Shown: positions 523 through 27,170 of the stretch, piece by piece
Numbering within the stretch: the first letter of the stretch is position 1
Layout: each line of letters begins with the position of its first letter
From: Chlamydiota bacterium
GTDB taxonomy: Bacteria; Auribacterota; JACPWU01
Reading direction: 5' to 3'
Length of the DNA stretch: 27,174 nucleotides
Assembly (NCBI GenBank): GCA_016196885.1
Contig: JACPWU010000057.1
Span: 1-27,174 of the forward strand
Notes under the pieces: model-generated
What the model was told of the DNA's origin: nothing
What the model saw: only the letters and a program-made list of their open reading frames with translations
Databases searched by the model: none
Translations under genes and position numbers: made by a program

Positions 523-633
523 GACACGAACCTCCTTTAAAGTTTAACGGGGTCAGATTCTATAGGGCTTCCCAAATAATTTCCACAACTATTTTTAAAA
601 AAATGAGGAAAAATGCGTCAGAGCGGGTGAAGA

Positions 634-731
634 ATAAAACATAAAACATAAAACATAAAACATAAAACATAAAACATAAAACATAAAACATAAAACATAA
701 AACATAAAACATAAAACATAAAACATAAAAC
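634..731 (+). repeat. Perfect heptanucleotide tandem array (ATAAAAC)x14
   Basis: I counted 14 uninterrupted units over 98 nt. The next AT of the repeat phase plus G forms the ATG at 732. Confidence 0.97.
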
Positions 732-8736: not shown

Positions 8737-8801
8737 TTTTCTTTGTTATGAAACATTCATGCCGACTGAGGGCGGCACAAAGGGGGATGAAAATCACCCT
8801 T

Positions 8802-8873
8802 GTAGTCGCCCCATTTATGGGGCGGTCTATGACATTGTGGCATTGGGCATTGCCCGATGAATCGGGCGACTAC
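8802..8873 (-). repeat. REP doublet (REPIN-like), inverted relative to copies at 1425 and 8984
   Basis: GTAGTCGCCCCATTTATGGGGC, then a 28-nt spacer, then GCCCGATGAATCGGGCGACTAC. These are exact reverse complements of the two unit types. Confidence 0.85.
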
Positions 8874-8927
8874 AAGTCATGATGAGTCATTGTATAAGAA
8901 TGACTAAAGACTATTTTCAGGTGAAAG

Positions 8928-8962
8928 TGGATGATGGATCATGGATCATGGATGATGGATTC
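8928..8962 (+). repeat. Heptanucleotide array (TGGATSA)x5
   Basis: The units read TGGATGA TGGATCA TGGATCA TGGATGA TGGATTC. Confidence 0.8.
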
Positions 8963-8983
8963 CTCTCTCTCGTTCAAGCTTGT

Positions 8984-9109
8984 GTAGTCGCCCGATTCAT
9001 CGGGCAGACCCATAAATGGGGCGACTACAAAATAAGGGAGGCGAGGTGAGGGAGGGGCGGGTGGGGCTTTCATTGCACACGATGACTCCCAAAAGGGTCA
9101 TTGAAATTA
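8984..9109 (+). repeat. Compact REP doublet (8984-9028) plus ~80-nt G-rich/hairpin extension (copy D; partner at 27-152)
   Basis: The doublet reads GTAGTCGCCCGATTCATCGGGCAGACCCATAAATGGGGCGACTAC. The extension is ~94% identical by hand count to 72-152. Confidence 0.85.
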
Positions 9110-11233: not shown

Positions 11234-11356
11234 CGGGTCCTGTCCCTCCCCACCCCCACCGTCGGCATCGGTGTCGGGGGGGATGATAGATGAAGGTAGG
11301 AGATTGAAGACTCCACCTGCTGGCGCACGGTGGGGGACCCCCGGTCGGGCCACCCG
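11234..11356 (+). repeat. Family P element, short copy (conserved 22-nt 5' block and 46-nt 3' block shared with 26923-27135)
   Basis: The 5' block CGGGTCCTGTCCCTCCCCACCC matches 21/22 and the 3' block CTCCACCTGCTGGCG...GGGGGACCCCCGGTCGGGCCACCCG matches ~40/46 against copy 2. An internal AAGGTAGG is shared. It ends 38 nt before the osmC ATG. Confidence 0.75.
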
Positions 11357-11805: not shown

Positions 11806-11809
11806 TTTT

Positions 11810-11893
11810 AGCGTACAGCGTATAGCGTTCAGCGTTCAGTAAAAAAGCGTGTTTTTCTGTACGCTATACGCTATACGCTGAACGCTGTACGCT
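11810..11893. repeat. Opposed heptamer arrays: (AGCGTNN)x4, an A6..T5 centre, then (NNACGCT)x5
   Basis: The left array reads AGCGTAC AGCGTAT AGCGTTC AGCGTTC. The right array reads GTACGCT ATACGCT ATACGCT GAACGCT GTACGCT. It lies between the convergent osmC and metH genes. Confidence 0.85.
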
Positions 11894-11897
11894 GTCT

Positions 11898-14800
11898 TTA
11901 AAGATTCGGCGAAAGCCATTTTCGAGCGGTCTCAATTTCCATCCCTTTGCGTTTTGCATAATCCTCGAGTTGGTCTTGGCCGATTTTGCCGACGGTAAAA
12001 TATTTGCTTTCGGGATGCGCGAAATAAAGACCACTGACAGACGCAGCCGGATACATGGAAAAATTTTCCGTCAGTTGAATGGATGCGTTCTTTTCGGCTT
12101 GCAAGAGATCAAAAAGAATCCGTTTCTCTGTATGATCTGGACAGGCAGGATAGCCGTGGGCAGGACGAATCCCCTGATATTCCTCTCGAATCAGGGCGTC
12201 ACGACCCAACGTCTCTTCTTTGACATAACCCCAATATTCTCTTCGGACACGTTCATGCAGGCGCTCAGCTAAAGCCTCTGCGCAGCGATCGGCCAGGGCT
12301 TTTAGCATGATGCTATTATAGTCATCATGATCCGCTTCAAATTTTTTGACGATTTTTTCAATTTCCAATCCCGCAGTGACTGCAAAGGCCCCGATATAAT
12401 CTGGGACGGTGCTTCCTTTGGGTGCAATGAAATCTGCAAGGGATAAATTCGGCTGTCCAGAATCTTTCTCTGCTTGTTGACGCAGCATGTGAAAAGTGGT
12501 GAGAACCTTGCGCTGAGAATCCTCTTTGTAAAGTTCAATGTCATCTCCAATGGCGTTGGCCGGGAAGAATCCAATAACGGCTCGAGCGGTGAGCCATTTT
12601 TCGCGAATGATTTGGTCTAGTAATTTTTGAGCATCGTCGAAAAGTTTTTTGGCCTCTTTGCCCAATTTAGGATCTTCAAAAATTTTTGGAAAACGGCCCT
12701 TCATTTCCCACGTGACAAAGAACAGGGTCCAGTCTATGTATTTTCGAATTTCAGAAAGGGGATAATCCGAAAATGATTTGAGGCCCAGGAATGAAGGGCG
12801 GGTGATCTCTTCGAAATTCAATTTGGCTTTCCTTTTCCGGGCTTCCTCGAGGGATAAAACATTTTTAGGGGTTCTCGCTGCATGCATTTTACGAAGCTCT
12901 TCATACTCTTCATCCGTTTTTGCAGTAAACCCTTTTTTCTCTGCTGCGTTTAAGAGATTCGAAACCACGCCCACGGCCCGTGAAGCGTCCAGGACATGGG
13001 TGGTAGACCCCTGATGATAAGCGGGTGCAATTTTAACGGCGGTATGAATTTTAGAAGTGGTGGCGCCTCCAATGAGAAGCGGAATTTCAAAACCTTCGCG
13101 TTCCATTTCCTGAGCCACATGCACCATTTCATCGAGGGAAGGCGTGATGAGGCCGCTCAGACCAATGATGTCTACCTTTTCTTTTCGGGCGGTTTCTAAA
13201 ATCTTTGCGCAGGGCGTCATCACGCCTAAGTCCATGATTTCATAATTGTTGCACCCCAGGACAACGCCCACAATATTTTTCCCAATATCGTGGACATCTC
13301 CCTTCACGGTGGCCAAAAGAATTTTTCCAGCATGGCTCCTTCCCGTTCCTGCTTTTTCAGCCTCCATAAAAGGGAGCAAATAGGCCACAGCCTTTTTCAT
13401 GACACGTGCACTTTTCACCACTTGAGGCAAAAACATTTTTCCAGCGCCAAAAAGATCTCCCACCACATTCATTCCGGCCATGAGTGGCCCTTCAATAATA
13501 GAGAGAGGTTTTGGATATTTGAGGCGGGCTTCTTCCATGTCTTTTTCGATATGGTCTACAATCCCCTGAACCAGGGCATGAGAGAGACGTTCCTCTACGG
13601 AGGCCTTTCGCCAAGATTCTTCCTCGACGGTTTTGCCTTCTTTCTTCTTGAACCGGTCTGCAAATTGAATCAGCCGTTCCGTTGCATCTTTTCTGCGATT
13701 CAAAAGAACATCTTCTGCAAGTTCCAATAAATCCTTCGGGATTTCTTCATAAACAGCGAGTTGTCCTGCATTGACAATGCCCATATCCAGACCCGCCTGA
13801 ATGGCATGATAAAGAAAGGCCGAATGCATGGCTTCTCTTACCGCATTGTTCCCGCGGAATGAAAAAGAAATGTTGCTGACACCTCCACTGACGTATGCGT
13901 AGGGGAGTGTTTTCTTGATTTCTCTTGTAGCCGTGATGAAATCCACCGCGTAATCGTTGTGCTCTTCCATGCCGGTGGCCACGGTTAAAATATTGGGATC
14001 AAAAATAATATCCTCAGGAGGAAATCCCACCTGCCTTGTGAGAATCTCATACGAGCGCCGGCAAATTTCAAGCTTTCGCTTGCTGTCTGCGGCCTGTCCC
14101 TCTTCATCAAAGGCCATGACCACGGTGGCTGCCCCATAGCGGCGAATTTTTTTGGCATGGGCGATCAAGGCAGCCTCTCCTTCCTTGAGGCTGATCGAAT
14201 TTACAATGGATTTACCCTGAACACATTTCAGACCTGCCTCAATGACCGACCCTTTGGAAGAATCAATCATGATGGGGACTTTCGAAATGTCGGGTTCGGC
14301 CGCGATTAAGTTTAGGAACCGCATCATTGTCTTTTCAGAATCCAACATTCCTTCGTCCATGTTGATGTCAATGATTTGGGCTCCATTTTCCACCTGTTGT
14401 CGGGCAATGGAAAGTGCCTTGTCAAAGTCTCCCGCCAAAATGGCCTTTGAAAAAAGGGGTGAACCCGTGATGTTAGTCCTTTCGCCGATGTTAATGAAAT
14501 TCAGTCCGGGGCGAACGTTCAGAGCCTCTAGGCCGCTCAGGCGAAGCATACGCTCCCGCTCCGGGATTTTCCGAGGCAAGCAGTTTGACACAACTTCCGC
14601 AATTTTCTGAATATGGGCCGGTGTGGTTCCGCAACACCCTCCCACAATATTCACAAAGCCACTTTTGGTAAAATCCAAAATATACTGAGCCATTTCCTCA
14701 GGTGTTTGGTCATATTGCCCAAATTGATTGGGGAGTCCCGCATTGGGATAGCAGCTTACGAAGCAATTTGCGAGGCCGGACAGTTCCTCGAGATAAGGCC

Positions 14801-15743
14801 TCATCTCTTTGGCCCCCAGGGCACAATTGATTCCGATGCTGAAAAGATTCGCGTGAGAAACGGAGTTCCAAAAGGCTTCGATGGTTTGACCCGACAGCGT
14901 TCGCCCGCTGGCATCTGTGATCGTGACCGAGGCCATCACGGGAAGACGGATGAGCTTGTCAGAAAAATATTGGTCAATCGCAAAAAGGGCCGCTTTTGCA
15001 TTTAACGTATCAAAAATCGTTTCCACAAGAAGAAGATCCACGCCTCCTTCTACGAGCCCGTGAATTTGATCGTAGTAAGCCTTGACCAAGAGGTCAAAAG
15101 TCACGGCCCGGAATCCGGGGTCATTCACATTCGGGGAAAGAGAGGCTGTGCGATTCGTGGGGCCCAGGGCTCCTGCCACCCAGCGGGGCTTCTGGGGATT
15201 TTTAAGGCTATATTCTATCGCCACTTTTTTGGCGAGACTGGCCGCGGATTGATTGAGCCTGAAAATCAGGTTTTCCATTTTATAATCAGCCATGGAAATG
15301 GCATTCGAACTAAACGTATTCGTTTCAATGATGTCGGCCCCGGCCTCGAGATAGCCGCAATGGATGGCTTCAATGATGTGCGGTTGGGTGATGGAAAGAA
15401 GATCATTGTTCCCTTTCAAATCGCAAACATGATTTTCAAATTCCTTCCCTCGATAATCCTCTTCACTGGGCCGATAGGTTTGAATCAGGGTCCCCATGGC
15501 ACCATCCAAAATTAAGATTCGTTTGGAAAGGATTTGGGTCAGTAGTTGAGTTAAACCTCGATACCGAAGTTGGGATGCGGCATTCGACGAAAGATCTTGG
15601 CCATCTTGGCTTTCAGAAATACTCGACAGGCATTTTTTATGCCTGCCTGCGTTTTCTTCAAGCCAATCTGGCTCAAGCTTTTTCGTCTCGGTGCTCGCAC
15701 CGAACTTCGGTATCGAGGTTAAACCGTCGGCCTTCTCTACCAT
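11898..15743 (-). CDS. metH: Cobalamin-dependent methionine synthase
   Basis: Full-length similarity to E. coli MetH as recalled ([18 protein letters not shown], the B12 motif GDVHDIGKN, the C-terminal activation domain). I moved the start to ATG 15743. AAGGAG lies 6 nt upstream of it, and a TTGACA-17-TAGGCT promoter lies inside the longer ORF that extends to 15848. Confidence 0.93.
15550..15725 (-). mobile_element. Family M palindromic element inserted in frame in metH (168 nt including one target-repeat copy)
   Basis: Perfect 15-bp inverted ends lie at 15557-15571 and 15703-15717. The direct repeat GTTAAACC lies at 15550-15557 and 15718-15725. The core matches 26672-26807 in reverse complement. 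Confidence 0.75.
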
Positions 15744-15777
15744 GAATAGCTCCTTGGAGGAGGATGATATGCAACCT

Positions 15778-16057: not shown

Positions 16058-19000
16058 ATGCAGACATCTCACATCCCCAGCCATTCCATAAAAAACCTCT
16101 GTGTATTTGTATGCCTTATTTTTTCCTTCCTTTTTATCAGTCTTTCTTGTTTAGAGGCGGCTACCCTCACCTGGGATGGAGAGGGCTCTACCACTGAATG
16201 GAGCGATTGTTCAAATTGGTCTAGCAACACATGCCCGGGTGCAAGTGATATCGCTACGTTTGATTCAACCTCGACAAAGAATTCTACCCTTGACGGAAAT
16301 TTTGGAGGTTCTGTGGCCGGAGTCAATATCGGCTCAGGTTACACGGGAACGATTACGCAAGCACATTTTCTGATTGTAGGTTCCAGCAATTACGTTCAAA
16401 GCGGCGGAACTTTCACAGGGGTCACCAACTATAATATCACCATCAATGGAGATTTTACTGTTACAGGAGGGACCTTTGGTGCGACTCCCAGTACGATGAC
16501 AGTCTCAGGAAATTTTACGCAGACCGCAGGAACCTTTAATGCCCAAACGGGAAAGGTCGTTTTGAATGGGACGAGTTCTGTAACGGTTGATGTGAATACA
16601 ACCGAAACCTTTTATGAATTAGAAATTAATAAAACCTCCAGCACGGATGCAGATGACAATGTGACGCTAACAGGAACGGATAGCTTGATTGTCACAAGCA
16701 AACTCACTTTGACAGATGGTCAAGTATATGGGGGAGACAGCACGGCCGCCCTGGATGCTCAGGGAGATGTGACTGTCGGTTCTTCATACAGTGGAGGGAC
16801 GAGCGCCCTTAACTTTTCGGGAGGCAATTCGCAATCCTTTGATCTTACGGGAGGCACGAACCGATTTGATTCAACGGTGACAATCAATAAAACAGCAGGT
16901 TCGACCGTGACCCTTGCTTCCGATCTCATTCTGGATAATACGGGGCAGGATTTGACCTTGTCGCAAGGAACACTCAATATTTCAACAAAGAATCTGACGG
17001 TTCTTGACGACTTCACCTTCACGGGAGGGGCCTTCACCAATGGAGGATCGAATTCGATTTCCATTGGGGATTTTGCCATGACGGGCAGTAGCAGCATCAG
17101 TTTCAGTGGCCAGAATTCTTCGATGACCCTCACTTCGAGTTTCACCTTAGCAAATGCGAATGCTACCTTTACTTCTACGAGCGGGACCCTGACCCTCACG
17201 GGAGATTTCACAAATTCGTCTGGAACATTTACCCATAACAGTGGGACTGTCACTTTAGATGGAACGAATCAAACCCTTTCAGGGGCGACGACCTTTTACA
17301 ATCTGACGAAAACACCTTCCACGGCTGCAACCCTGACTCTTCCTGCAAGTACGACTGTCACGATTGCAGGTACGACCACGTTGAAAGGGGCATCTGGGGG
17401 AGCCTTACTCTCCTTGAGAAGCAGTACGTCAGGGACGCAGACGAAAATCAATCCTCAAGGGACTCGGAGCCTTCAGTATTTGGATGTGAAAGACAACAAC
17501 AACACGAATTCCACAGTGATGTCCTGTACCACGGGCTGCACGGACAATGGGAACAATACGAACTGGGAGTTTGGTCCCACCGTTCAGTTTGCCTCTACCT
17601 CCTCCAGTGGTTCTGAGAGTTCTACCTCCGTGAGTCTGTCTGTCAGCCTCTCCAGTTCTAGCAGTTCGGATGTGACCGTGAACTATGCTGTAGGCTCAGG
17701 GACGGCCACCAGTGGAGGAACAGACTTCACGTTGAGCGATGGGACGCTCACCATTACAGCTGGCAGTGTCAGCGGAAGTATTTCCATCACGGTTGTGAAT
17801 GACACCTTGGATGAAAATGATGAAACAATCATTGTCACTCTTTCCAGCTCCACGAATGCCACTTTAGGGACGAACACCACCCACACTTATACCATCACGG
17901 ATAATGATGATCCTCCTTCCGTGAGTTTCACGAGCTCCAGTCAGAGTGGGGCTGAGAGTGTTGGAACGATGACAGTGACAGCACAGCTTTCTACGGCTTC
18001 GGGGCTGGCCGTGAGTGTGCCTTATACCATCACAGGTACTGCAACAGGAAGTGGGACCGATTATACCATTACCTCTAGCCCTGTGAGCATCTCTGCAGGT
18101 TCTACCACAGCGACCGTGACCATTACCGTGGTGAGTGATGCCCTTGATGAAGCCAATGAAACAGTCATCCTCACCATGGGATCTCCCACGAATGCCTCTC
18201 AAGGGAGTACCACCACACATACGGCGACGATTACAGATGATGATTCTTCAACCATTACCTATACCTGTGACAACACGTGCTCCATTTATGTGGATGGGAC
18301 GCTCATTGTAACAGATACAAATTGGAGGACGGCGGACAGCTACAGCATGGATCTAACCATAGGAACAGGCTCAGATGATGGAAGCCTCATTGCGGCAAAA
18401 GTGGATGACACAAGCTGGGTGGGAGGTTTTGCCTGCCGAATTGATGCGGGCGGAAGTCGAACTCAAGGATCAGACTTTGTGTGGAAGGTGTTGGCGATTG
18501 ATGACAACAATCCGCCTTCGAACTGGAATCAAACCAGTTACAGTGACTCTAGCTGGTCGGGGGCTACTGAAAAAGCCATTGTCGGTCAAGGCCGATGGGG
18601 TTCGATGAGTTCATTCAGCAATTCTGACAGCAAGGCCAAGTGGATTTGGAGCAGCAAATGGTACAAGAACGATCATGTCCTCTTTCGAGCGAGAGTGAAT
18701 CCCTCCACAAATGGTCTCATCATAGTGGGTGCGGACAACCGGTGTGAAGTCTATCAAAATGGGACTCGAATGGGAGCAGGAACAGATTGGTCGCAGCCTA
18801 TCTTCATCCCCGCGGTCATTCAAACCGGGGATGTGATAGCAGTGCATGCAACAGATGAAGGAGGGATCGCAAGCCTGATCAGTGAAATCACATGGGAAGA
18901 GAATGGGACGAGGAGAACCGTGGTGAGCGATGGGACATGGAGGCTCTCGACAGAGAACGTCTCAGGGTGGGAGAGTAGCTCCTACACGGATACCTCATGG

Positions 19001-20029
19001 GGGACAGCCCATGTGACGAGTAGCCTAGGAAGCGGGCCGTGGGGAACGACTGGGACATTAGAAGAGCTATCGAGGGATGCGAAATGGATCTGGGATAGCA
19101 ATACAGAAGGGACCAATGAGGTCTGGGTGAGAAAGAGCATTTCTGCAAGCCCGAATGCGACCCTAACATATAGCTGTGACAACAGTGCAGAAGTCTATGT
19201 AAATGGGGTCTTGATGAGTAGCCTCAGTGAATGGGGGACGCCCCAAAGCACCTCCCTAAATCTATCGAATGGAGACGTCATCGCCGTCAAGGGGATGGAT
19301 GCAGGGGGGATCGCAGGATTCATAGGATCCATATCCTACAACGGGTCAACCCTCCTGACGAACTCGACCTGGAAAGTCTCGAAGGGGACCTACAGTGACT
19401 TATCGTGGGCCCAGAAGACATATGATGATAGTGGTTGGGGTTATGCTGTAGATCATGGGGGAAATGGAATCAGCCCCTGGGGGAATCTGACAGCAATCAG
19501 CTCAGATGCCCATTGGATATGGACAGGGGACAACAACAGTGATGACACCGTTTACTTTAGATTCACGATAGGGAACAGCAACACACCTGTAGGACAGACG
19601 ACCCTATACGCAAGTGCCGATAACAGCTTCAAGCTCTATAAGAACGGGGTCTTGATTGCCAGCGGGAGTGAATGGTCTCAGCCACAGAGTGTGATCACAC
19701 CATTATCGTCAGGGGATATCTTGGCCATAGAGGCAGATGATCTTGGGTATAAGGCAGGGATGCTCTTTTATTCGACAGGGACCTACTCTATGGTATCAGA
19801 CACGTCATGGAAGATGAGTACCGTAGAACAGGCCAATTGGAATACCTCCACATTTGATGATTCATCGTGGGAGGGTGCGACAGATTACGGGGCGTATGGG
19901 GTGAGCCCTTGGGAGAACCATATCTCGGGATGGCCTTCGACGTCTAGCCATTGGATCTGGTCCCGCAACAATGTGACCGGTTCTTCCTCTATCGATTCAA
20001 AGGTGTTCTTTAGAAAAAGGGTGCTGTAA
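16058..20029 (+). CDS. Secreted/surface repeat protein: signal peptide, beta-helix-like region, 2 Calx-beta domains, 4 C-terminal ~150-aa jelly-roll-like modules
   Basis: Signal peptide aa 1-34 (cleavage predicted at CLEA|ATLTW). GxFTxTGGTF-type repeats run through aa ~35-505. Calx-beta signatures (VNYAVGSGTATSGGTDF...DENDET; PYTITGTATGSGTDY...DEANET) lie at aa ~507-729. Four modules span aa 732-1323, each with ADNxxxxYxNG, GDxxAxxxxDxGG, DSSW and WIW. Confidence 0.85.
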   Translation: MQTSHIPSHSIKNLCVFVCLIFSFLFISLSCLEAATLTWDGEGSTTEWSDCSNWSSNTCPGASDIATFDSTSTKNSTLDGNFGGSVAGVNIGSGYTGTITQAHFLIVGSSNYVQSGGTFTGVTNYNITINGDFTVTGGTFGATPSTMTVSGNFTQTAGTFNAQTGKVVLNGTSSVTVDVNTTETFYELEINKTSSTDADDNVTLTGTDSLIVTSKLTLTDGQVYGGDSTAALDAQGDVTVGSSYSGGTSALNFSGGNSQSFDLTGGTNRFDSTVTINKTAGSTVTLASDLILDNTGQDLTLSQGTLNISTKNLTVLDDFTFTGGAFTNGGSNSISIGDFAMTGSSSISFSGQNSSMTLTSSFTLANANATFTSTSGTLTLTGDFTNSSGTFTHNSGTVTLDGTNQTLSGATTFYNLTKTPSTAATLTLPASTTVTIAGTTTLKGASGGALLSLRSSTSGTQTKINPQGTRSLQYLDVKDNNNTNSTVMSCTTGCTDNGNNTNWEFGPTVQFASTSSSGSESSTSVSLSVSLSSSSSSDVTVNYAVGSGTATSGGTDFTLSDGTLTITAGSVSGSISITVVNDTLDENDETIIVTLSSSTNATLGTNTTHTYTITDNDDPPSVSFTSSSQSGAESVGTMTVTAQLSTASGLAVSVPYTITGTATGSGTDYTITSSPVSISAGSTTATVTITVVSDALDEANETVILTMGSPTNASQGSTTTHTATITDDDSSTITYTCDNTCSIYVDGTLIVTDTNWRTADSYSMDLTIGTGSDDGSLIAAKVDDTSWVGGFACRIDAGGSRTQGSDFVWKVLAIDDNNPPSNWNQTSYSDSSWSGATEKAIVGQGRWGSMSSFSNSDSKAKWIWSSKWYKNDHVLFRARVNPSTNGLIIVGADNRCEVYQNGTRMGAGTDWSQPIFIPAVIQTGDVIAVHATDEGGIASLISEITWEENGTRRTVVSDGTWRLSTENVSGWESSSYTDTSWGTAHVTSSLGSGPWGTTGTLEELSRDAKWIWDSNTEGTNEVWVRKSISASPNATLTYSCDNSAEVYVNGVLMSSLSEWGTPQSTSLNLSNGDVIAVKGMDAGGIAGFIGSISYNGSTLLTNSTWKVSKGTYSDLSWAQKTYDDSGWGYAVDHGGNGISPWGNLTAISSDAHWIWTGDNNSDDTVYFRFTIGNSNTPVGQTTLYASADNSFKLYKNGVLIASGSEWSQPQSVITPLSSGDILAIEADDLGYKAGMLFYSTGTYSMVSDTSWKMSTVEQANWNTSTFDDSSWEGATDYGAYGVSPWENHISGWPSTSSHWIWSRNNVTGSSSIDSKVFFRKRVL

Positions 20030-20034
20030 AGACA

Positions 20035-20100
20035 GGCGTGAGTCGTGAGTTTTAAGGGCATTCTTTTTTTGTTCACCACTCACCTATCACCCCTCACGAC
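20035..20100. repeat. Opposed heptamer arrays: (GNCGTGA)x2 ... (TCACNNN)x4
   Basis: The left array reads GGCGTGA GTCGTGA. The right array reads TCACCAC TCACCTA TCACCCC TCACGAC. It lies between two convergent genes. Confidence 0.7.
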
Positions 20101-20118
20101 TGTTTTCTTTGAGGAGAG

Positions 20119-20166
20119 CCTCCCCTCTTTAGTTTAAAGAGGGGTTGGGGGAGTTAATTTCTTTTT
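20119..20166 (+). repeat. Small palindromic element: CCCCTCTTTA-GTT-TAAAGAGGGG plus tail TTGGGGGAGTTAATTTCTTTTT
   Basis: A 10-bp stem. The 20-nt tail GGGGGAGTTAATTTCTTTTT is identical to 21378-21397, which lies inside the next gene. Confidence 0.8.
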
Positions 20167-20173
20167 GATGATT

Positions 20174-22036
20174 TTATTCTTTGTCTGCAGAAGAAGGGGC
20201 ACTTTTTAGTTCTTGAAACAGATTTTTTAAATCTTGAACCAATCCATCCGCAACCACAAAGGTCAATCCTTTTTCCCCAACTCGAATCAGGTGTCCTTGG
20301 CGCTCCCTTGTTTTACTGATTCTCCATTCTATGGAGTTCGTTTCGGGAAGGGTCATAGACAAGACCCATCCGATATCTCCCTCTTTCCAACTTTCAGGAT
20401 TTTCAGATAAATCCAGGGCATGAAGATTTGAAAGTTGGGAAAGGAGAGGACCTATTTTTTGATATTCCATGGTTTGGTTTTTACCCTCGAGCGTCCAGAG
20501 AGATTCATTTTCTTCCGTGTGTTTTAGAACGGTTGTATTCTCCCCCTCTTTTAAAGTGAAAGAAGTGACGTCCTTGATTTTAAAATGAGAAAGGGTTAAG
20601 TCAAAAAGAACGCTGATGGACGGAAGAATTTTTTGAAAGCTGTCTCTTGAAACAGTCCAAATCTCTGGGGCTTTGTCGATTTGAATAAAGCGATGACCTG
20701 AGGTGAGAGGGACCTCTTTTCCAAATCGCAGCTTGTGAGACGATCCATCTCTTAATGTGATTTCTGCAGTCGGAGCCAAGTCTGAAAGTCCAAGGGTTTC
20801 TGGTGAGTTTAGGTAAGAGCGGTCTACCCTTTTGACTTGGGAGATGGTGTTTAGCAGGGTCTCGATTGTTTCTGGATAGAGGGGAAGTTTGTCAAAGGGT
20901 GGATGCGCCACCCATTTTTTCTCTTTGAGTTCAAATTCTAAAGTGTGCCTCCCAGTCCGAAGAGAAATTTTTTGAACCTCTTCTTTCTTCCAAGAAGGTG
21001 AGGGAAGTTCTATGAGTTCTGAAAGGGGGATCAAGGTGTTTTCCACTTTCCATAGGGCAATTTTGAAAACGAGATCATGGTCATTCACCTTCATGTAACA
21101 AATACCAGAGCCTTCTGGAGAGGATTCTCCGACATCTAAACGGTTTGTTTTTCCATCTCTGTCTTTGATCCAGCATTGAGCTGCCGGCTTCTCAAGCCCA
21201 TATTTCTTGAAGTTCCCGCGGTCCACGATCCCACTTGCAGTCAGATGAGACAGATTTTCTAAAAGTTTATTCAAACCCTCTTTTTTAAGAGCCATCTCCT
21301 TGGGTTCCAAGAGAACCCATTCTTTGGTTGCAGATAAACTGAAAGGGAGGATCCCCCCTCTTAGGATCAGAGGGGAGGGGGGAGTTAATTTCTTTTTCTC
21401 CAAAATCAATTTTCGATAGGGAAAGATCATTTCAACTCTCTCTATTTTTTCTTGAGAAAGGGTCCAGAGGGCCGTCTCACACCAAGGATCGCTGGAAGGA
21501 TCTGTCTGATCTGAATCTTCGGAAATATTAAATCTAGCGAGAAGAGGATCCTGGGCCAGGAATACATCAGGGTTTCCTTCTTGTCTCACGAAATTTTCAT
21601 TCCGGTTTGGGCCGCGTTTCCCAATGAGAAGATGTTCTTCCATTTTACCTTTCTCGTTCATCAACACGAGATGCAGGGCGTTTTCGTCGTCCAATCCGTA
21701 ATCACCCAAAACGGCTGGGCTTGAAGATCGAAGCTCTCCTTCTAAAGAAGTCAGGGCCGATAAAAGCTCATCCACCTTTTCATGAATGGCAGGGGCATCG
21801 AATTTGCTTTGGACAGTCCATGTCCCATTTTTCTCTTTAAGCCGCACGCCTTTGTCTTCTGATTTTTGACGGAAGCATTTGATTTCTCGAACGGTGTCAG
21901 CAGAAAAATTCTTACCCAGAATCCTTTCATAACGAAGACCGAAAACGGCCACCGGTTGTTTTGATTTTTGGTAGAAATAAAGGACGCTCAAAGAGCCAAA
22001 CGCAAGAATCAAAAAAAGGATTTGCTTGACCTTCAT
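20174..22036 (-). CDS. DUF4340-like membrane-anchored protein, third gene of the GldA/F/G-type ABC operon
   Basis: 620-aa ORF with an N-terminal TM helix (ILFLILAFGSLSVLYF). It starts 1 nt after the GldFG stop. The DUF4340 assignment rests on its position after a GldG-like gene and its general character, not on a computed match. Confidence 0.6.
   Translation of the reverse strand: MKVKQILFLILAFGSLSVLYFYQKSKQPVAVFGLRYERILGKNFSADTVREIKCFRQKSEDKGVRLKEKNGTWTVQSKFDAPAIHEKVDELLSALTSLEGELRSSSPAVLGDYGLDDENALHLVLMNEKGKMEEHLLIGKRGPNRNENFVRQEGNPDVFLAQDPLLARFNISEDSDQTDPSSDPWCETALWTLSQEKIERVEMIFPYRKLILEKKKLTPPSPLILRGGILPFSLSATKEWVLLEPKEMALKKEGLNKLLENLSHLTASGIVDRGNFKKYGLEKPAAQCWIKDRDGKTNRLDVGESSPEGSGICYMKVNDHDLVFKIALWKVENTLIPLSELIELPSPSWKKEEVQKISLRTGRHTLEFELKEKKWVAHPPFDKLPLYPETIETLLNTISQVKRVDRSYLNSPETLGLSDLAPTAEITLRDGSSHKLRFGKEVPLTSGHRFIQIDKAPEIWTVSRDSFQKILPSISVLFDLTLSHFKIKDVTSFTLKEGENTTVLKHTEENESLWTLEGKNQTMEYQKIGPLLSQLSNLHALDLSENPESWKEGDIGWVLSMTLPETNSIEWRISKTRERQGHLIRVGEKGLTFVVADGLVQDLKNLFQELKSAPSSADKE
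21353..21397 (+). repeat. Intragenic copy of the small palindromic element (inside the DUF4340-like CDS)
   Basis: It reads CCCCCCTCT-TAGGATC-AGAGGGG plus AGGGGGGAGTTAATTTCTTTTT. On the minus strand it encodes ...EKKKLTPPSPLILRGGI.... Confidence 0.75.
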
Positions 22037-22037
22037 G

Positions 22038-24593
22038 TTAGGAGAAGTTCCTTCGTAAATATCGTTCTCTCTTGAAGCGGCGTAAACTCAGTCGGCCGAC
22101 TCCTAAGAGAATGAGAAAAAGGGGAATGATCCCTGTTCCTAAAAAGCGGTATAGCATTTTTTGGTTGCCTGAAAGTTTCGGAATTAAACGGGCCATTTTT
22201 TCTTTGGTTCTGAGATGAATCAGTTCATCCCCCAGGGTGAGCGCATCCACACTGTTGATGAAGAAATCGCCGTTGTTGCCATATTCAATCACATGGTCAT
22301 TCCAGATCATGGCGCAGGCAACCATGAAGAGCCGCGCAGGCTGAGCAATGGAAGGAGGAGATGTCTTCTCGTCTTGGGGTGCTGAAGCCGATTTTTCTTC
22401 CACTCCTTTTTCCCATCTCGGTTTTTTCTTGTCTTTGAAGGCGTCTGGAAATGTACCCTCGATTAAAAGGGCCAAAGGTTTGCCGGGTTCAAAGTGATCA
22501 GGCGGCTCAATATCTTCTCTTTTCAATTCCCCCTCGCGAAAAGGGTGCGTCCAACTTTCTTTCCCTGAAGAAAGAAGGGTCGTGGTTTTTAAATGATTCT
22601 TCAAGATTTTTTCCGTGTCCGGGATAAGCACAGTTCCCCATAAATAAAAGAGGGAGCTCAGGCGGTTGGAAATGGAAATATCCGGATTCATGCTGTCCCC
22701 TGTCAGAATCACATGGGTGGGAAGATGGATAGGCATTGCCACTTCAAAGGGTCCGTAGCGTTCCTCTGTTTGAATACTCAGGGTTTCTGATTGACGGTCC
22801 ATGAGAAAATCCGAACTCACTTGAACGCCATATTTTTTAAGAAGGCCGTCAAGGCCGGTATTGATTTTAAGACTGCTGGCATGAGGTCCCTCTTGATCGC
22901 TGGTATAATTTTGCTGATAAGATTGGATGGCCAGAATCACGGATTTTCCGCTTAGAAGGGCATGGTTGAGCTCCCAGATTTCCCGCTTATTCCACCTTTG
23001 GGGATTCACAATCACAACGGTGTTCACATTTTCGGGGATAGACTCGTTTTTTTCAAAATCAATGGGAATGATTTCGTATTCCTCACTTTCTAGAATTTTG
23101 GGAAGATACTTGAAATGATCCTTTTCTTCTGCAGTGGCGATGCCACGCGCCTCAAAAAGCTCTTTTATCTGAGGATCCATGCGGTCTTTGGGAGTTATCA
23201 AGGCAATTCGGGGTTTGGGGTCGCGGGTGAGGTGAAAAATGCGGGAGATGAGTTCATATTCGAGGCTGCCAAAATTTTGTGGGGTGAGTCTTGGGATGGC
23301 CTCAGGTTTTTTCTCTTTATAGGCCAGGGTCATCCCGGAATAAATGCTCACGATCGTACGCTCGTCGGCTTCAATGCTTTGCACTTGAAAGGGAACCACC
23401 CCTTTTTTCATGAGCTCTTCGGACAATTTTTGCGATTCTGTTTCTTCGGCTTTTTCTGCCTCACCGAGCAATTGCTTGGCGGCATCCTCTCCAAGGCGTT
23501 TGGAGAAAAGCTTTCTCATTTCTCGTCTTTGAATGTTGAGGGCGTCCATGGCCTCCACATGATGGACTTGAAATTGTAGATTTCCGTTAGATGCAATTTC
23601 AAACTCCTGAATCTTATCCACCACCTCTTCTTCAAAGGTCTTCATGAGAGAAGGCATTTTTTCAGGGGGGGAAATGTAGAAATCTACTTTCACGGGAACT
23701 TTTAATTGGGAAAGAACCCCTTTGGCTTCAGGTGAGACGGTATAAATTTTTTCCTCTGTTAAATCAAACCGCTCACGGGTGAATCCATCCGCGACCCCAT
23801 TAAAAAAAAGGATGAGACAAGTATATACAAATGTATATACGATCAATTGCCGCTTGGCATGAGGTTTCATACGGCTCTCAAGATAAAAGACATTCAGTCC
23901 CAGAAAAAGGGCTGTCATCGAGAGAAAATAAATCACATCTCGGGCATCCAGGAGGCCGCGCTCCACGCCTTCGAAATGAGGGGTCATCGCGACAAATTTT
24001 AAAATGCGTGTGCCCAGTGCAAGCGTCCCGGTCCATCCGTCCAGTTGGAGAGCTACGAGCGGCATCCCCAAAAGATAGAAGGAGAGACAGGTCATCATGG
24101 AGACGACGAAGGCCAGAATCTGATCCTTACAGAGGCCCGACACAAAAAGTCCCAAACCGATAAAAAAACTCCCGCAGAGAAAAGATCCAAAATAACCTCC
24201 CAGGATTGGGCCCCAGTCGGGTTTCCCTAACAGCTTGAGCATCAGGGGAATCGAAGCCGTGGTGCCCAGCGCAATGGCATAAAAGGCAAGGCTGGCGAAA
24301 AATTTTCCAAGCACCAAGTCACGTGTTTTGAGTGGCAAGGTCAGCAAAAGTTCAAAGGTCCCCTCTTTTCTTTCCTCGGCCCAGAGGCGCATGGTGATCG
24401 CTGGAATAAAAACCACAAGCATGATGGGAAGGCCAGAAAAAAAGGAACGCATTTCAATGCGGCCCGCCAAGAAAAAAGAGAGAAGATAGAGGCTGCTTGT
24501 CACGAGTGAAAAAACAATCAAGAAAATGTAGGCAATAGTGGAATTGAAATAGGCCCCCCATTCTCGGCGAAAAAGGATGAGGATGTTTTTCAT
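22038..24593 (-). CDS. Fusion of an ABC-2 permease (GldF-like, aa ~1-245) and a GldG-like auxiliary ABC component (aa ~250-851)
   Basis: The N-terminus has about six predicted TM helices (not mapped individually) with a typical ABC-2 start (FRREWGAYFNS). A TM helix then precedes RFDLTEEKIYTVSPEAKGVLSQLKVPVKVDFYISP, which is typical of GldG. There is a C-terminal TM anchor. The start overlaps the ATPase stop by 4 nt. Confidence 0.8.
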   Translation of the reverse strand: MKNILILFRREWGAYFNSTIAYIFLIVFSLVTSSLYLLSFFLAGRIEMRSFFSGLPIMLVVFIPAITMRLWAEERKEGTFELLLTLPLKTRDLVLGKFFASLAFYAIALGTTASIPLMLKLLGKPDWGPILGGYFGSFLCGSFFIGLGLFVSGLCKDQILAFVVSMMTCLSFYLLGMPLVALQLDGWTGTLALGTRILKFVAMTPHFEGVERGLLDARDVIYFLSMTALFLGLNVFYLESRMKPHAKRQLIVYTFVYTCLILFFNGVADGFTRERFDLTEEKIYTVSPEAKGVLSQLKVPVKVDFYISPPEKMPSLMKTFEEEVVDKIQEFEIASNGNLQFQVHHVEAMDALNIQRREMRKLFSKRLGEDAAKQLLGEAEKAEETESQKLSEELMKKGVVPFQVQSIEADERTIVSIYSGMTLAYKEKKPEAIPRLTPQNFGSLEYELISRIFHLTRDPKPRIALITPKDRMDPQIKELFEARGIATAEEKDHFKYLPKILESEEYEIIPIDFEKNESIPENVNTVVIVNPQRWNKREIWELNHALLSGKSVILAIQSYQQNYTSDQEGPHASSLKINTGLDGLLKKYGVQVSSDFLMDRQSETLSIQTEERYGPFEVAMPIHLPTHVILTGDSMNPDISISNRLSSLFYLWGTVLIPDTEKILKNHLKTTTLLSSGKESWTHPFREGELKREDIEPPDHFEPGKPLALLIEGTFPDAFKDKKKPRWEKGVEEKSASAPQDEKTSPPSIAQPARLFMVACAMIWNDHVIEYGNNGDFFINSVDALTLGDELIHLRTKEKMARLIPKLSGNQKMLYRFLGTGIIPLFLILLGVGRLSLRRFKRERYLRRNFS

Positions 24594-25564
24594 TTCTCAC
24601 CCTCCTTTTTTTCCTTCTCTTTGAATCGCAGGGATCGCGTCAGTCCCAGGAAAGTTTCCTCTAAAGACAAACGATGGGGGCCAAAGGATTGCAAGGCCCA
24701 ATTTTTTTCTTTAATCATTTGATCTGCTTCGTTCCAGAGTTCTGGGCCAAAAGGTCCTCTCAATTCAAAGGTGGAAAGAAGATCCCCCCTCCCCGTCTCT
24801 AAAAAAGAGAAAGAGCCAAGAGCTGAAAGTCCTCTCAAGGCATTCTCCACCTCTTCACGAGAGGCCCTGACCGTCAGGTGATAACAGTCTTGGCCCATTG
24901 CCGTTGCCTGAAGTTCTTCCAGGGTACCGTCCGCTATTTTTTTTCCTTCATGGATGATGAGGATGCGATGACTTAAAGAGTCGGCCTCTTGCATGATGTG
25001 CGTGCTGAAGAGAATGGTTTTTTCTTGAGCCAGTTTCCGGATCAATTCTCGAATCTCAATGATTTGAAAGGGGTCGAGCCCTGCCGTGGGTTCATCCAGA
25101 ATCAAGACCTTTGGATCGTGCATCAAGGCCTGGGCCAATCCCACCCGTTGGCGATAGCCTTTGGAAAGTTCTGAAATGGTTTTCTTGAGAACCTCTTTCA
25201 AGGAAAGATTTTCGATCACCCAGGTGAGGCGTTGCCGAGCCATCTTTGCTTGGAGATGGCGGGCCTGGGCGATAAATTTTAAATATTCATCTACCTGCAT
25301 CCCCAAATAAAGAGGGGCCGTTTCGGGTAAATAACCCATCAGGCGGCGGACCTCGAGGGGCTTTTGGAGAATGTTGAACCCATCCACAGTGGCCGTTCCG
25401 CAAAGCGGGGTGAGAAAAGTGCTTAAGATACGCATCAAAGTCGTTTTTCCCGCCCCATTGGGTCCCAAGAGACCCAAAATCTCTCCGGGTTTAGCCTTGA
25501 AGGACACGTGGTCTAAGGCCACCGTGAAACCGTAACGCATCGTGAGTTCGCAAGCTTCGATCAT
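24590..25564 (-). CDS. ABC transporter ATP-binding protein (GldA/CcmA-like)
   Basis: Walker A is GPNGAGKTT, the signature is LSKGYRQRVGLAQAL, Walker B is LILDEPTAGLD, and the H-loop is STHIM. Confidence 0.93.
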   Translation of the reverse strand: MIEACELTMRYGFTVALDHVSFKAKPGEILGLLGPNGAGKTTLMRILSTFLTPLCGTATVDGFNILQKPLEVRRLMGYLPETAPLYLGMQVDEYLKFIAQARHLQAKMARQRLTWVIENLSLKEVLKKTISELSKGYRQRVGLAQALMHDPKVLILDEPTAGLDPFQIIEIRELIRKLAQEKTILFSTHIMQEADSLSHRILIIHEGKKIADGTLEELQATAMGQDCYHLTVRASREEVENALRGLSALGSFSFLETGRGDLLSTFELRGPFGPELWNEADQMIKEKNWALQSFGPHRLSLEETFLGLTRSLRFKEKEKKEGEK

Positions 25565-25568
25565 AAAT

Positions 25569-25649
25569 ACAGTTTTAAGTTATAAGTTGTAAGTTTTAAG
25601 TTTAAAAGGAATTTATTTTTTACTTACAGCTTACAGTTTATAGCTTATG
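25569..25649. repeat. Opposed heptamer arrays: (TAAGTTN)x4-5 ... (RCTTAYN)x4
   Basis: The left array reads ACAGTTT TAAGTTA TAAGTTG TAAGTTT TAAGTTT. The right array reads ACTTACA GCTTACA GTTTATA GCTTATG. The right arm overlaps the grxD stop codon. Confidence 0.75.
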
Positions 25650-25962
25650 ACTGCTTTAACATTTCTTGCAATTCCCCGCGCTCGTACATTTCGGTGACGA
25701 TGTCGCAGCCGCCGATAAACTCTCCATGAATGAAAATTTGGGGAACGGTAGGCCATTGGGTGTAATCCTCCAAGGCATCCCACAGCTCGTCATTTGCGAG
25801 GACATTGACAGATGCCAGGTCCTTCGCGCCTGCGGCCCGAAGCACTTCACAGGCACGGGCTGAAAATCCGCATTGAGGAGCCTCAGGGGTACCCTTCATA
25901 AAAATAATCACAGGACTAGATTTTACTTTTTCTTCGATTTGGGATCTCAAGGGATGTGACAT
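25645..25962 (-). CDS. grxD: Monothiol glutaredoxin (Grx4/GrxD family, CGFS active site)
   Basis: FMKGTPEAPQCGFS and WPTVPQIFIHGEFIGGCD. AGGAG lies 7 nt upstream of ATG 25962, so the longer ORF to 26001 is not needed. Confidence 0.92.
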   Translation of the reverse strand: MSHPLRSQIEEKVKSSPVIIFMKGTPEAPQCGFSARACEVLRAAGAKDLASVNVLANDELWDALEDYTQWPTVPQIFIHGEFIGGCDIVTEMYERGELQEMLKQS

Positions 25963-26059
25963 TGTGATGCTCCTTTTTTTAAAACAATTTCCAAGGGTCA
26001 ATGTCTAATTGGACATTTGAAAATTGGAAATTAATTTGACATTGGGTATTGTAAATTTG

Positions 26060-26302
26060 TCATTTTTTATATTGCTCTGGCGTATAAGTTTTTAAAGTCA
26101 GTGCGTGCAATTCTCCGGAGGCAATTTCATGTTCGAAAATCTTGTAAATCATGCGATGTTGAGCAATCATGAGTTTACCCTTAAAGGTGGGAGAAATCAC
26201 CACTGCCTGGTAATGGTCTTGGGTTCCTGTGAGATCGGTTACCTCTGCCTGTGTCTGGGGAGCCCATTTTTCTATTTTTGACTTAATTTGTTCCGCGTTC
26301 AT
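26060..26302 (-). CDS. bolA: BolA-family protein
   Basis: An 80-aa version starting MNAEQIKSKIE has BolA length and features (DLTGTQDHYQAVVISPTFKGK, HRMIY, HALTLKTYTP). The longer ORF begins at a GTG (26362) and adds 20 non-homologous residues. Confidence 0.85.
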   Translation of the reverse strand: MNAEQIKSKIEKWAPQTQAEVTDLTGTQDHYQAVVISPTFKGKLMIAQHRMIYKIFEHEIASGELHALTLKTYTPEQYKK

Positions 26303-26379
26303 AAAGTTAGTTTTTTTACACCAGAACTTCCATATTAATGGTAAAATCCTCCCCGAGTCCACTTAAAAAAGGGGGGTCT

Positions 26380-26598
26380 ATGGACACCAAAAGCTGTATC
26401 GTTTGTAAGCTATTGGGTCTTCTGGTGGTGATTGGGGCTTTGAATTGGGGTTTGATCGGGATTTTGAAGTTGGATTTGGTGGCAAAGCTCTTGGGGGACA
26501 TGACGATTGCTTCCCGGGTCGTTTATACCTTGGTGGGGATTGCAGGCGTGGCGAAGCTCATTTCTTGTTTTAGAGATTGTCCGGCGTGCAAGAAATAG
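26380..26598 (+). CDS. DUF378-family small membrane protein
   Basis: The core VVIGALNWGLIGILKLDLVAKLLG...SRVVYTLVGIAG is typical of DUF378. A G-rich SD lies just upstream of ATG 26380. Confidence 0.8.
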   Translation: MDTKSCIVCKLLGLLVVIGALNWGLIGILKLDLVAKLLGDMTIASRVVYTLVGIAGVAKLISCFRDCPACKK

Positions 26599-26620
26599 CT
26601 TTTGTACTTTAAATTTATTC

Positions 26621-26852
26621 AAAGGCTCTTTCCTTCCTATACATACCCAAGGACAGAGATAGGAAATGAGAACCGAGACGCAAAAGCTTGAGCCAGACAG
26701 GCCTTTGCAGTCCCTGTGGGATTGACCTGAAGAAAACGTAGGCATACACTGACAGGTGTCTGTCGAGGCTTTCTGAAGGTCAAGATGGCCAAGATCTTGC
26801 GTCGAATTCCATTTTCCTATCTCTGTCCTTGGGTACATAGGAAAGAGCCTTT
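26621..26852 (+). mobile_element. Family M element, non-coding copy, nested in two layers of inverted repeats
   Basis: The outer 14-bp IR is AAAGGCTCTTTCCT (26621-26634) / AGGAAAGAGCCTTT (26839-26852), followed by a T-run. The inner 22-bp IR is ACCCAAGGACAGAGATAGGAAA (26645-26666) with its reverse complement at 26813-26834. The core 26672-26807 matches the metH insert. Confidence 0.75.
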
Positions 26853-26885
26853 TTTTGTTCCCTGTGGGTAGCACGTCAAGATGTC

Positions 26886-27170
26886 GATCGTGTATTTAAA
26901 AGTGTGTCCTTTTAAGAGGAGGCGGGTCCTGTCCCTCCTCACCCAGCAAGGTAGGTTTTTCTGCCGGTGGCAGAAAAACCTTCCGCGGTAGTAAATGTTA
27001 TTTCTCGTTTATCAACTGACGGCACAGAGGTTATAGCCCCCGTGGGGTCGATATCGGTTGGGTTGTGAATGTAATGAGAGGGTCCATGTCTCCATCTGCT
27101 GGCGATCAGCGGGGGACCCCCAGTCGGGCCACCCGCATCCATAAAAGGACACACTTTTAAATACACGATC
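26886..27170 (+). repeat. Family P element, long copy (26923-27135), enclosed by a 29-bp perfect inverted repeat
   Basis: The IR is GATCGTGTATTTAAAAGTGTGTCCTTTTA (26886-26914) with its exact reverse complement at 27142-27170. The P blocks lie at 26923-26944 and 27090-27135. An internal 13-bp hairpin is AGGTTTTTCTGCC/GGCAGAAAAACCT. Confidence 0.8.

Follow-up and report, generated by a model that had tools for sequence, protein, structure and literature searches.

A dispersed palindromic repeat inserted in frame near the 5' end of metH in a Chlamydiota bacterium

The Rickettsia palindromic elements (RPEs) RPE-1 to RPE-10 are dispersed palindromes of about 100-170 nt that encode a hydrophilic peptide (PMC10969869, PMC1458961, PMC3733652). 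They often lie in frame in housekeeping genes without breaking them, and no associated transposase is known. For instance, R. bellii carries 526 RPEs, 53 of which are located in genes (PMC1458961). [quoted passage not shown] Moreover, both the RPEs and the CGTC repeats are without a dedicated transposase (PMC3733652). Here, we describe a palindromic element in a stretch of 27,174 nt from a Chlamydiota bacterium (contig JACPWU010000057.1, assembly GCA_016196885.1; hereafter the window), where it adds 56 codons to metH, the gene of the cobalamin-dependent methionine synthase. The segment is inserted in metH, is absent from the homologues of the enzyme and recurs as dispersed copies. It probably represents a copy of a new, rare, RPE- or MITE-like family of non-autonomous hairpin-forming elements that was inserted in frame in the N-terminal tail of metH.

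The insert in metH

The features of the metH locus are listed below, with positions referring to the window.

11898-15743, minus strand: metH, cobalamin-dependent methionine synthase, 1281 codons with the insert included
15750-15755, minus strand: Shine-Dalgarno-like AAGGAG, read from the sequence, 6 nt 5' of the ATG (15741-15743)
15549-15716, minus strand: 56 inserted codons (SIPKFG...RYRGLT), MetH residues 10-65, stop-free
15557-15717, minus strand: body of the palindromic element with type-A arms, an inverted repeat forming a single arm-to-arm hairpin
15582-15692, minus strand: conserved core ACCGAGACG...CGTCGAAT, common to all copies according to the copy alignments
15550-15557: direct repeat GTTAAACC, left copy, candidate target-site duplication, last base overlapping the inverted repeat
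15718-15725: direct repeat GTTAAACC, right copy, candidate target-site duplication, perfect over 8 bp and 168 nt from the left copy

In the NCBI annotation, the product is likewise a protein of 1281 aa, P0001, to which the MetH translation is 100% identical. The five Pfam domains of MetH are all present, as are intact zinc-site (NCALG, GGCCG) and B12 (GDVHDIGK) motifs, and no stop codon occurs before the terminal one. Read from the minus strand, the N-terminus is MVEKADGLT(SIPKFG...RYRGLT), in which the parentheses enclose the insert; the insertion point thus lies 9 codons past the metH start in the non-conserved N-terminal tail. The initial annotation, which was made from the sequence alone, had proposed a 168-nt palindromic insert adding 56 codons in frame near the 5' end of metH, and the sequence is exactly as described. 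The inverted ends CTCGATACCGAAGTT (15557-15571) and AACTTCGGTATCGAG (15703-15717), given there as 15 bp, are perfect and in fact extend to 16 bp, and a repeat finder reports 25 bp at 92% with two mismatches. Likewise, the direct repeat that had been put at 7-8 bp turned out to be a perfect 8 bp, with GTTAAACC at 15550 and 15718. This repeat is itself almost palindromic (GGTTTAAC versus GGTTAAAC) and only one base off a plain extension of the inverted repeat. An empty-site allele lacking the element would be expected to have a form such as ATGGTAGAGAAGGCCGACGGTTTAACTCAACTACTG.

The whole 168-nt segment folds into one hairpin (-101.6 kcal/mol, z = -14.05), and none of 200 shuffled sequences folds as well. 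Since the net insertion amounts to 168 nt (3 x 56) and its frame is free of stops, the downstream frame of metH survives. The encoded peptide is hydrophilic, with a grand average of hydropathy (GRAVY) of -0.96 compared to -0.19 for the remaining MetH, so that the description of the insert as a stop-free, hydrophilic multiple of three holds for all 56 codons. When the insert is excised, 18 residues are left before RILILDG, as had been predicted, and this is an ordinary length for the N-terminus.

The sequence also bears out that AAGGAG and an ATG lie upstream of the insert, at a spacing of 6 nt and in the same frame as the rest of metH. Between codon 1 and codon 79 there is no in-frame ATG, GTG or TTG, and codon 79 already falls within the conserved first strand, ILILDG. 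Thus, the sole conventional route to MetH is to start at 15743 and to read through the element, and the upstream start signals together with the absent downstream starts suggest that the element is probably translated. The promoter TTGACA-17-TAGGCT that had been proposed upstream is present as a sequence; however, its -10 hexamer matches in only three of six positions and a consensus scan made no call, which makes it weak evidence.

To place the insert among related enzymes, 119 other MetH homologues were listed and the N-termini of the 29 closest of these were read. The lengths of all 119 range from 1205 to 1250 aa, compared to 1281 aa here, and none could hold the insert. In all 29 N-termini, 10-27 residues precede the (R/K)I(L/V)(I/V)LDG motif, and neither the 56-aa insert nor a trace of it was found in any of them. 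The closest listed homologue is P0002, a MetH of 76% identity from the syntenic relative L008, whose gene order is that of the window (metH-OsmC-phosphorylase-radical SAM-DsbH). In L008 the element is found neither in metH nor in the 21 kb around it, and nhmmer (E <= 10) detected no element in the metH loci of L008, L009 and L010 (58 kb in total). The comparison of orthologues proposed by the initial annotation therefore shows the 56 residues to be missing from the 29 N-termini and from the syntenic locus. The segment was also rightly judged not to be a MetH-specific domain, as it is foreign to the homologues and recurs in non-coding DNA and on other contigs.

The surroundings of metH differ between these genomes. 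In L008 and L009, bolA and a glutaredoxin gene are located upstream of metH, adjoining it in L009 and separated from it by two or three genes in L008. In the window, a gene for a 1323-aa Calx-beta protein and a DUF4340/ABC-transporter operon (16058-26362) lie between metH and bolA/glutaredoxin. Judged by gene order relative to L008 and L009, this indicates a putative local rearrangement or insertion beside the 5' end of metH.

Copies and anatomy of the element family

The core of the insert recurs in inverted orientation at 26672-26807, where it is 87-89% identical to the metH copy in two blocks, in agreement with the 85-90% first counted by hand. The features of this second copy and of its target are as follows.

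26646-26833, plus strand: second copy with type-B arms CCCAAGGACAGAGATAGGAAA..., located by a repeat finder and by nhmmer (E = 6.7e-64, with this copy included in the query alignment)
26640-26645: direct repeat TACATA on the left of the second copy, candidate target-site duplication, abutting CCCAAGG
26834-26839: direct repeat TACATA on the right of the second copy, candidate target-site duplication, abutting CCTTGGG
26621-26856, plus strand: intrinsic terminator of a DUF378 gene (26338-26598), split by the second copy
26697-26720, plus strand: about 24 extra nt that none of the other four copies has

Only the core is common to the second copy and the metH copy, and the outer arms differ in sequence. 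Stop codons occur in the corresponding frame, as the initial annotation had noticed, and the region 26620-26860 folds at -117.6 kcal/mol (z = -11.2). The split terminator consists of the stem halves 26621-26634 and 26839-26852 followed by a T-run. Removing the second copy together with one TACATA yields a terminator with a 14-bp stem, a 10-nt loop and a T7 run (-21.3 kcal/mol, z = -6.3). Moreover, the orthologous DUF378 gene in L009 possesses an uninterrupted terminator of the same build at the same place. The restored terminator and its intact counterpart, which comes near to an empty-site comparison, thus show that the second copy was cleanly inserted in the loop of a terminator. Of the 25 bases at 26700-26724 in the second copy, 23 agree with the metH sense strand at 12366-12390, in codons for AFAVTAGL that belong to a conserved MetH motif, and the right junction of the extra segment has GATTG in common with the core (microhomology). 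Comparable matches elsewhere in the window all come from obvious repeat families, and no such match occurred in 40 simulated windows. The extra segment may be a templated patch copied from metH.

Five copies of the element are known at the DNA level, namely the metH copy, the second copy and those on the contigs L001, L004 and L011. A scan of a genome collection with the core pattern, which did not include the source assembly and hence did not return the two copies of the window, gave a single match, L001, a contig of a metagenome-assembled genome (MAG) of Candidatus Auribacterota that also belongs to the Planctomycetes-Verrucomicrobia-Chlamydiae (PVC) group. The same scan of a metagenome collection gave two matches, of which L004 (a JGI metagenome contig) is real and L003 is due to chance. 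Three matches in a viral collection (L005-L007, about 20 nt each) were also dismissed as chance, and BLAST searches of plasmids and phages with the element gave no match. At the protein level, an exhaustive HMMER search of 1.84 billion representative proteins with the 56-aa peptide identified the short predicted proteins P0121 and P0122, which are translated further copies; P0121 is 76% identical to the insert over 41 aa. A profile search added P0130, which is encoded by the complete copy on L011. Seven other matches of the peptide search (an RPDWFE repeat, WD40-like SPDGQTLASG proteins) were rejected as chance or low complexity. When six-frame translations of both window copies were compared with 5.8 billion proteins, only MetH itself was returned. 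Across the protein and profile searches, no segment of the element was found in a real protein besides this MetH.

The contigs hosting the element range from 39 to 55% in GC content, the copies from 161 to 241 nt in length and the 111-nt cores from 76 to 90% in pairwise identity; two of the copies lie within the 27 kb of the window. Reading frames are not conserved between copies, as indels at the apex shift the frame and stop codons occur in the second copy, L001 and L004. On L011, the type-A copy (2094-2270) begins directly after the TGA of an acyltransferase gene, and the annotated TTG start (2227) of a GT2 glycosyltransferase gene lies inside the right arm, giving the N-terminus MRRIPWPNFGIEV...; this is probably a gene-calling artefact, or else a second element-derived extension. 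The copy on L004 carries about 85 extra nt between the core and the right arm (572-650, minus strand). Two small perfect hairpins lie within it, TGCCGTGCA...TGCACGGCA and GTAAGGACT..AGTCCTTAC, an indication that further small palindromes may have been inserted into the element copy.

Two types of arms surround the common core. Type A, AACCTSRATACYGRRGTT, is present in the metH, L001 and L011 copies, and type B, CCCAAGRACAGAGATAGRAAA, in the second copy and L004; the idea of copy-specific outer arms was dropped because of this distribution. The two types show about 45-59% ungapped identity by hand count and may be either diverged homologues or unrelated contexts. Inverted ends of 16-25 bp occur in each copy, and across the family the core is better conserved than these ends. 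When the five copies are aligned, 27 of the 64 consensus pairs, ten of them in the core, keep pairing via changes on both sides. The hairpin is maintained with compensatory changes between the copies. Both strands fold with about equal energy in the window copies, and the sense strand is favoured only in L001 and L004.

The initial annotation had read the ends as an architecture of terminal inverted repeats and target-site duplications. This stands insofar as direct repeats of 8 and 6 bp flank the two window copies; however, no clear repeats flank the other three copies, and the terminal repeats are not conserved in the family, as the two arm types demonstrate. L011 has at most 5 bp (AAAAC), L001 nothing clear and L004 only a displaced GTATAT. 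Furthermore, the right-hand GGTTTA is also present in L001, and part of the metH 'duplication' may thus belong to the element. The L001 copy is located between convergent genes, at the apex of a 27-bp hairpin that is followed by T9. The proposal that the element always targets hairpin apexes is true of the second copy and of L001; however, no significant structure was predicted for the metH target as reconstructed (z = 0.48), which rules out hairpin targeting as a general rule.

Several other identities were considered and rejected. At the gathering score, Rfam gave no match to the whole window, and at E <= 10 both copies yielded only sub-threshold miRNA, snoRNA and CRISPR-repeat noise, which speaks against a riboswitch or ribozyme. 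A cis-regulatory RNA of metH is also contradicted by the absence of the element from the metH loci of relatives and by the unrelated contexts of the other copies. For an intein or a self-splicing intron, 56 aa or 168 nt are too small; there is no Rfam intron match, and the sequence also occurs in non-coding DNA.

Origin of the insert and consequences for MetH

Taken together, the observations argue that the element landed 9 codons past the metH start and probably moved there by transposition. The gene would most likely yield the full MetH, extended by 56 hydrophilic and probably unstructured residues that precede the first helix in the homocysteine-binding barrel. The enzyme presumably retains its activity, and the insertion would have persisted because it is nearly neutral in a non-conserved tail. 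The initial annotation had asked whether a structure prediction would show the insert as a disordered N-terminal tail. In an AlphaFold model of MetH residues 1-429, built with 33 homologues, the barrel has a predicted local distance difference test (pLDDT) score above 90, residues 1-48 score below 50, and residues 49-74 are modelled as a helix that runs into strand 1. The family, with elements of about 165-190 nt, appears to be previously undescribed and rare; it has no Rfam match.

Several points weigh against this interpretation. A transposase, or an autonomous element whose ends match, was detected neither in the window nor in the fetched loci. Within the family, conservation is lowest at the ends, which is the opposite of what a transposase binding to terminal repeats would predict. 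The direct repeats are of unequal length (8 and 6 bp) and near-palindromic, and they are not evident at L001, L004 and L011. The insertion cannot be dated because the closest available relative is only 76% identical, and the low pLDDT of the insert partly reflects that there are no aligned sequences in this part. Finally, translation could be hindered, or RNase III attracted, by a hairpin of -100 kcal/mol whose start lies 18 nt past the AUG.

The last point leads to the unlikely scenario of a crippled metH, in which translation is blocked by the mRNA hairpin, RNase III cleaves this hairpin, or the extended protein is inactive, so that metH would be a young pseudogene or a strongly down-regulated gene. 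The hairpin from codon 7 onwards is indeed very stable (-101.6 kcal/mol), and its 25-bp near-perfect outer stem is long enough for a typical RNase III substrate. Moreover, the near-perfect arms and the perfect flanking repeat suggest a recent event, and decay may not yet be visible. However, the frame is open over 1281 codons with intact zinc and B12 motifs, the insertion point lies ahead of the barrel, and a stop-free multiple of three is what functional selection would leave. Rickettsial genes that carry RPEs are also regarded as compatible with function (PMC10969869). It is even less probable that the element is an untranslated 5' leader and that MetH starts at a non-canonical codon such as CTG (codon 68) or ATC (codon 71). 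Near-cognate codons do exist at positions 68, 71, 76 and 78, and in many homologues the conserved strand is preceded by no more than 10-15 residues. Against this, no ATG, GTG or TTG lies between the element and ILILDG, no purine-rich Shine-Dalgarno sequence is visible in the right arm GGTATCGAGGTTTAAC, and a good AAGGAG precedes the upstream ATG by 6 nt in frame with the gene. The open multiple-of-three insert would then be an unexplained coincidence, as an estimated 6% or so of random 56-codon frames are open. An assembly artefact, in which two repeat-bearing loci were misjoined and the start with the first 9 codons stems from another gene, is highly improbable. The source is a MAG, and the difference between the window and the public record at the repeat cluster 8825-9008 indicates that repeats disturb the assembly. 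However, both assemblies show the same junctions, the element lies between perfect 8-bp repeats, the N-terminus is normal in length and character once the insert is removed, and metH would be left without a start codon if the upstream part were removed. A near-identical public contig, JACOUD010000020.1 (assembly GCA_016178005.1), comes from a MAG labelled 'Chlamydiae/Chlamydiota bacterium' by NCBI. In the public record L002, which is another assembly version of the contig and departs from the window elsewhere, the element has an identical sequence; this argues against an artefact.

Two further proposals concern the nature of the family. According to the first, which we consider quite unlikely, the repeat serves chiefly as a structured nucleic acid with a function of its own, for instance as a terminator, an mRNA-stabilising hairpin or a single-stranded DNA hairpin used by an HUH-type enzyme, and it spreads in a manner dependent on the hairpin rather than on terminal repeats and has reached metH by accident. 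The conserved core, the variable ends and the many compensatory pairs would fit, as would the position of the second copy and of L001 at the apex of terminator hairpins with T-runs, downstream of genes on the same strand. Furthermore, GTAG-type repetitive extragenic palindrome (REP) doublets, which are linked to IS200/IS605-like REP-associated tyrosine transposases (RAYTs), occur in the same genome (PMC3733652). On the other hand, there is no Rfam family even at E <= 10, no strand-specific signal is evident as the strands of the window copies fold about equally, the metH target as reconstructed forms no hairpin (z = 0.48), and the direct repeats flanking two copies fit better with a staggered-cut transposition; only five DNA copies are available. 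A bolder version, to which we would assign a small chance, holds that the family is a hairpin-dependent mobile element rather than a conventional MITE moved by a transposase acting on terminal repeats to which it binds. Such an element would conserve the sequence of its core, let its outer stems covary freely, and might have spread among distantly related uncultured bacteria (39-55% GC). It might land in unpaired AT-rich sites such as terminator loops and acquire templated patches like the 24-nt metH-derived segment. Its movement could proceed as a single-strand hairpin via an HUH/RAYT-like or other enzyme, or through RNA, and its multiple-of-three length and open frames might have evolved for survival inside genes.

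Other repeats in the window and comparison with known elements

The window is rich in repeats of other types. GTAG-tagged REP-like stem-loops with the sequences TGTAGTCGCCC-CATTTATG-GGGC and TGTAGTCGCCCGATTCATCGGGCA occur at 37-152, 1400-1535 and 8797-9109, where they form intergenic inverted doublets, and the same family is present in the syntenic relative L008 (763-830). A GTAG REP superfamily has been reported for the PVC group (PMC3733652), and the REP family of the window fits this description. The window and L002 differ only at 8772-9025, by about 184 extra nt (8825-9008) in the REP cluster and a few substitutions, which is either a real presence/absence polymorphism of the repeat or an assembly collapse. 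A third repeat family (11235-11356 and 26918-27136) consists of GC-rich conserved blocks, CGGGTCCTGTCCCTCCNCACCC ... CTCCAYCTGCTGGCG..GGGGGACCCCC.GTCGGGCCACCCG, and has no match in Rfam; its second copy is interrupted by 90 inserted nt and lies between inverted repeats that are perfect over 29 bp (26886-26914 and 27142-27170). At 634-738, fifteen tandem ATAAAAC heptamers reach the ATG (732) of a gene for a HAD-family hydrolase, and the length of this tract could be variable. Finally, a palindrome of heptamer repeats (TAGCGTACAGCGTA, CTGTACG units) with 35-nt arms of 86% complementarity (11807-11895) occupies the space between OsmC and metH, two convergent genes, and is probably a bidirectional terminator.

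The element resembles the RAYT-mobilised GTAG REPs and REPINs in being palindromic and dispersed, often 3' of genes and sometimes intragenic. However, REP units comprise 20-40 bp and have a terminal GTAG or CGTC tag (PMC3733652), whereas the element is about 170 nt long, ends in AACCT.../CCCAAG..., has no GTAG tag and follows a different consensus. Size and ends thus rule out a REP, and the true GTAG REPs of this genome constitute a separate family, GTAGTCGCCC....

With ERIC/IRU and SPRITE the element has in common a length of about 100-130 nt or more, a single long hairpin and a transcribed intergenic location near gene ends (PMC10969869). SPRITE resembles a rho-independent terminator (PMC10969869), whereas the terminator described here is part of the target site rather than of the element. 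Moreover, ERIC/IRU and SPRITE are enterobacterial or pneumococcal families, and they were compared with the element by description only.

There is also a likeness to bacterial MITEs such as Correia, RUP, Nezha, QMITE1 and the in-frame-fusing Anabaena MITEs: all are small, non-coding and multi-copy with inverted ends within each copy, are flanked by direct repeats (here at two copies) and are inserted in intergenic regions or sometimes in frame in genes (PMC10969869). The element stays under the size of about 500 bp, is without its own coding capacity and is present in multiple dispersed copies. In contrast to MITEs, its terminal repeats vary across the family while the interior is conserved, it is a single hairpin kept by compensatory changes, its direct repeats are variable or absent, and no parent insertion sequence was found.

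The host enzyme is large and well understood, so that the locus offers a testable case both for the tolerance of MetH towards 56 extra N-terminal residues and for the effect of a -100 kcal/mol hairpin at codon 7 on expression. The pattern of core and arms, the compensatory evolution, the insertion into a terminator loop and the wide range of GC contents could illuminate how palindromes without a transposase move. Furthermore, inserts of this type inflate protein lengths and create spurious short open reading frames in the annotation of MAGs (P0121, P0130 and the glycosyltransferase start on L011).

The parallel with the RPEs that had been drawn by the initial annotation is apt, because the element is palindromic, dispersed, hydrophilic in translation and inserted in frame at a tolerant position. 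Indeed, both the sequence and the predicted structure place this in-frame palindrome where the MetH fold would tolerate it. The differences are that the host is a MAG of the PVC group and not an alphaproteobacterium, that the likeness is drawn from descriptions of the elements, that one intragenic copy is known here compared to dozens in Rickettsia, and that the copies occur in several unrelated-looking genomes (39-55% GC) with two arm types around one core. Rickettsia is the best-known source of selfish palindromes lying in frame in essential genes, and a clear case from the unrelated PVC group broadens the phenomenon.

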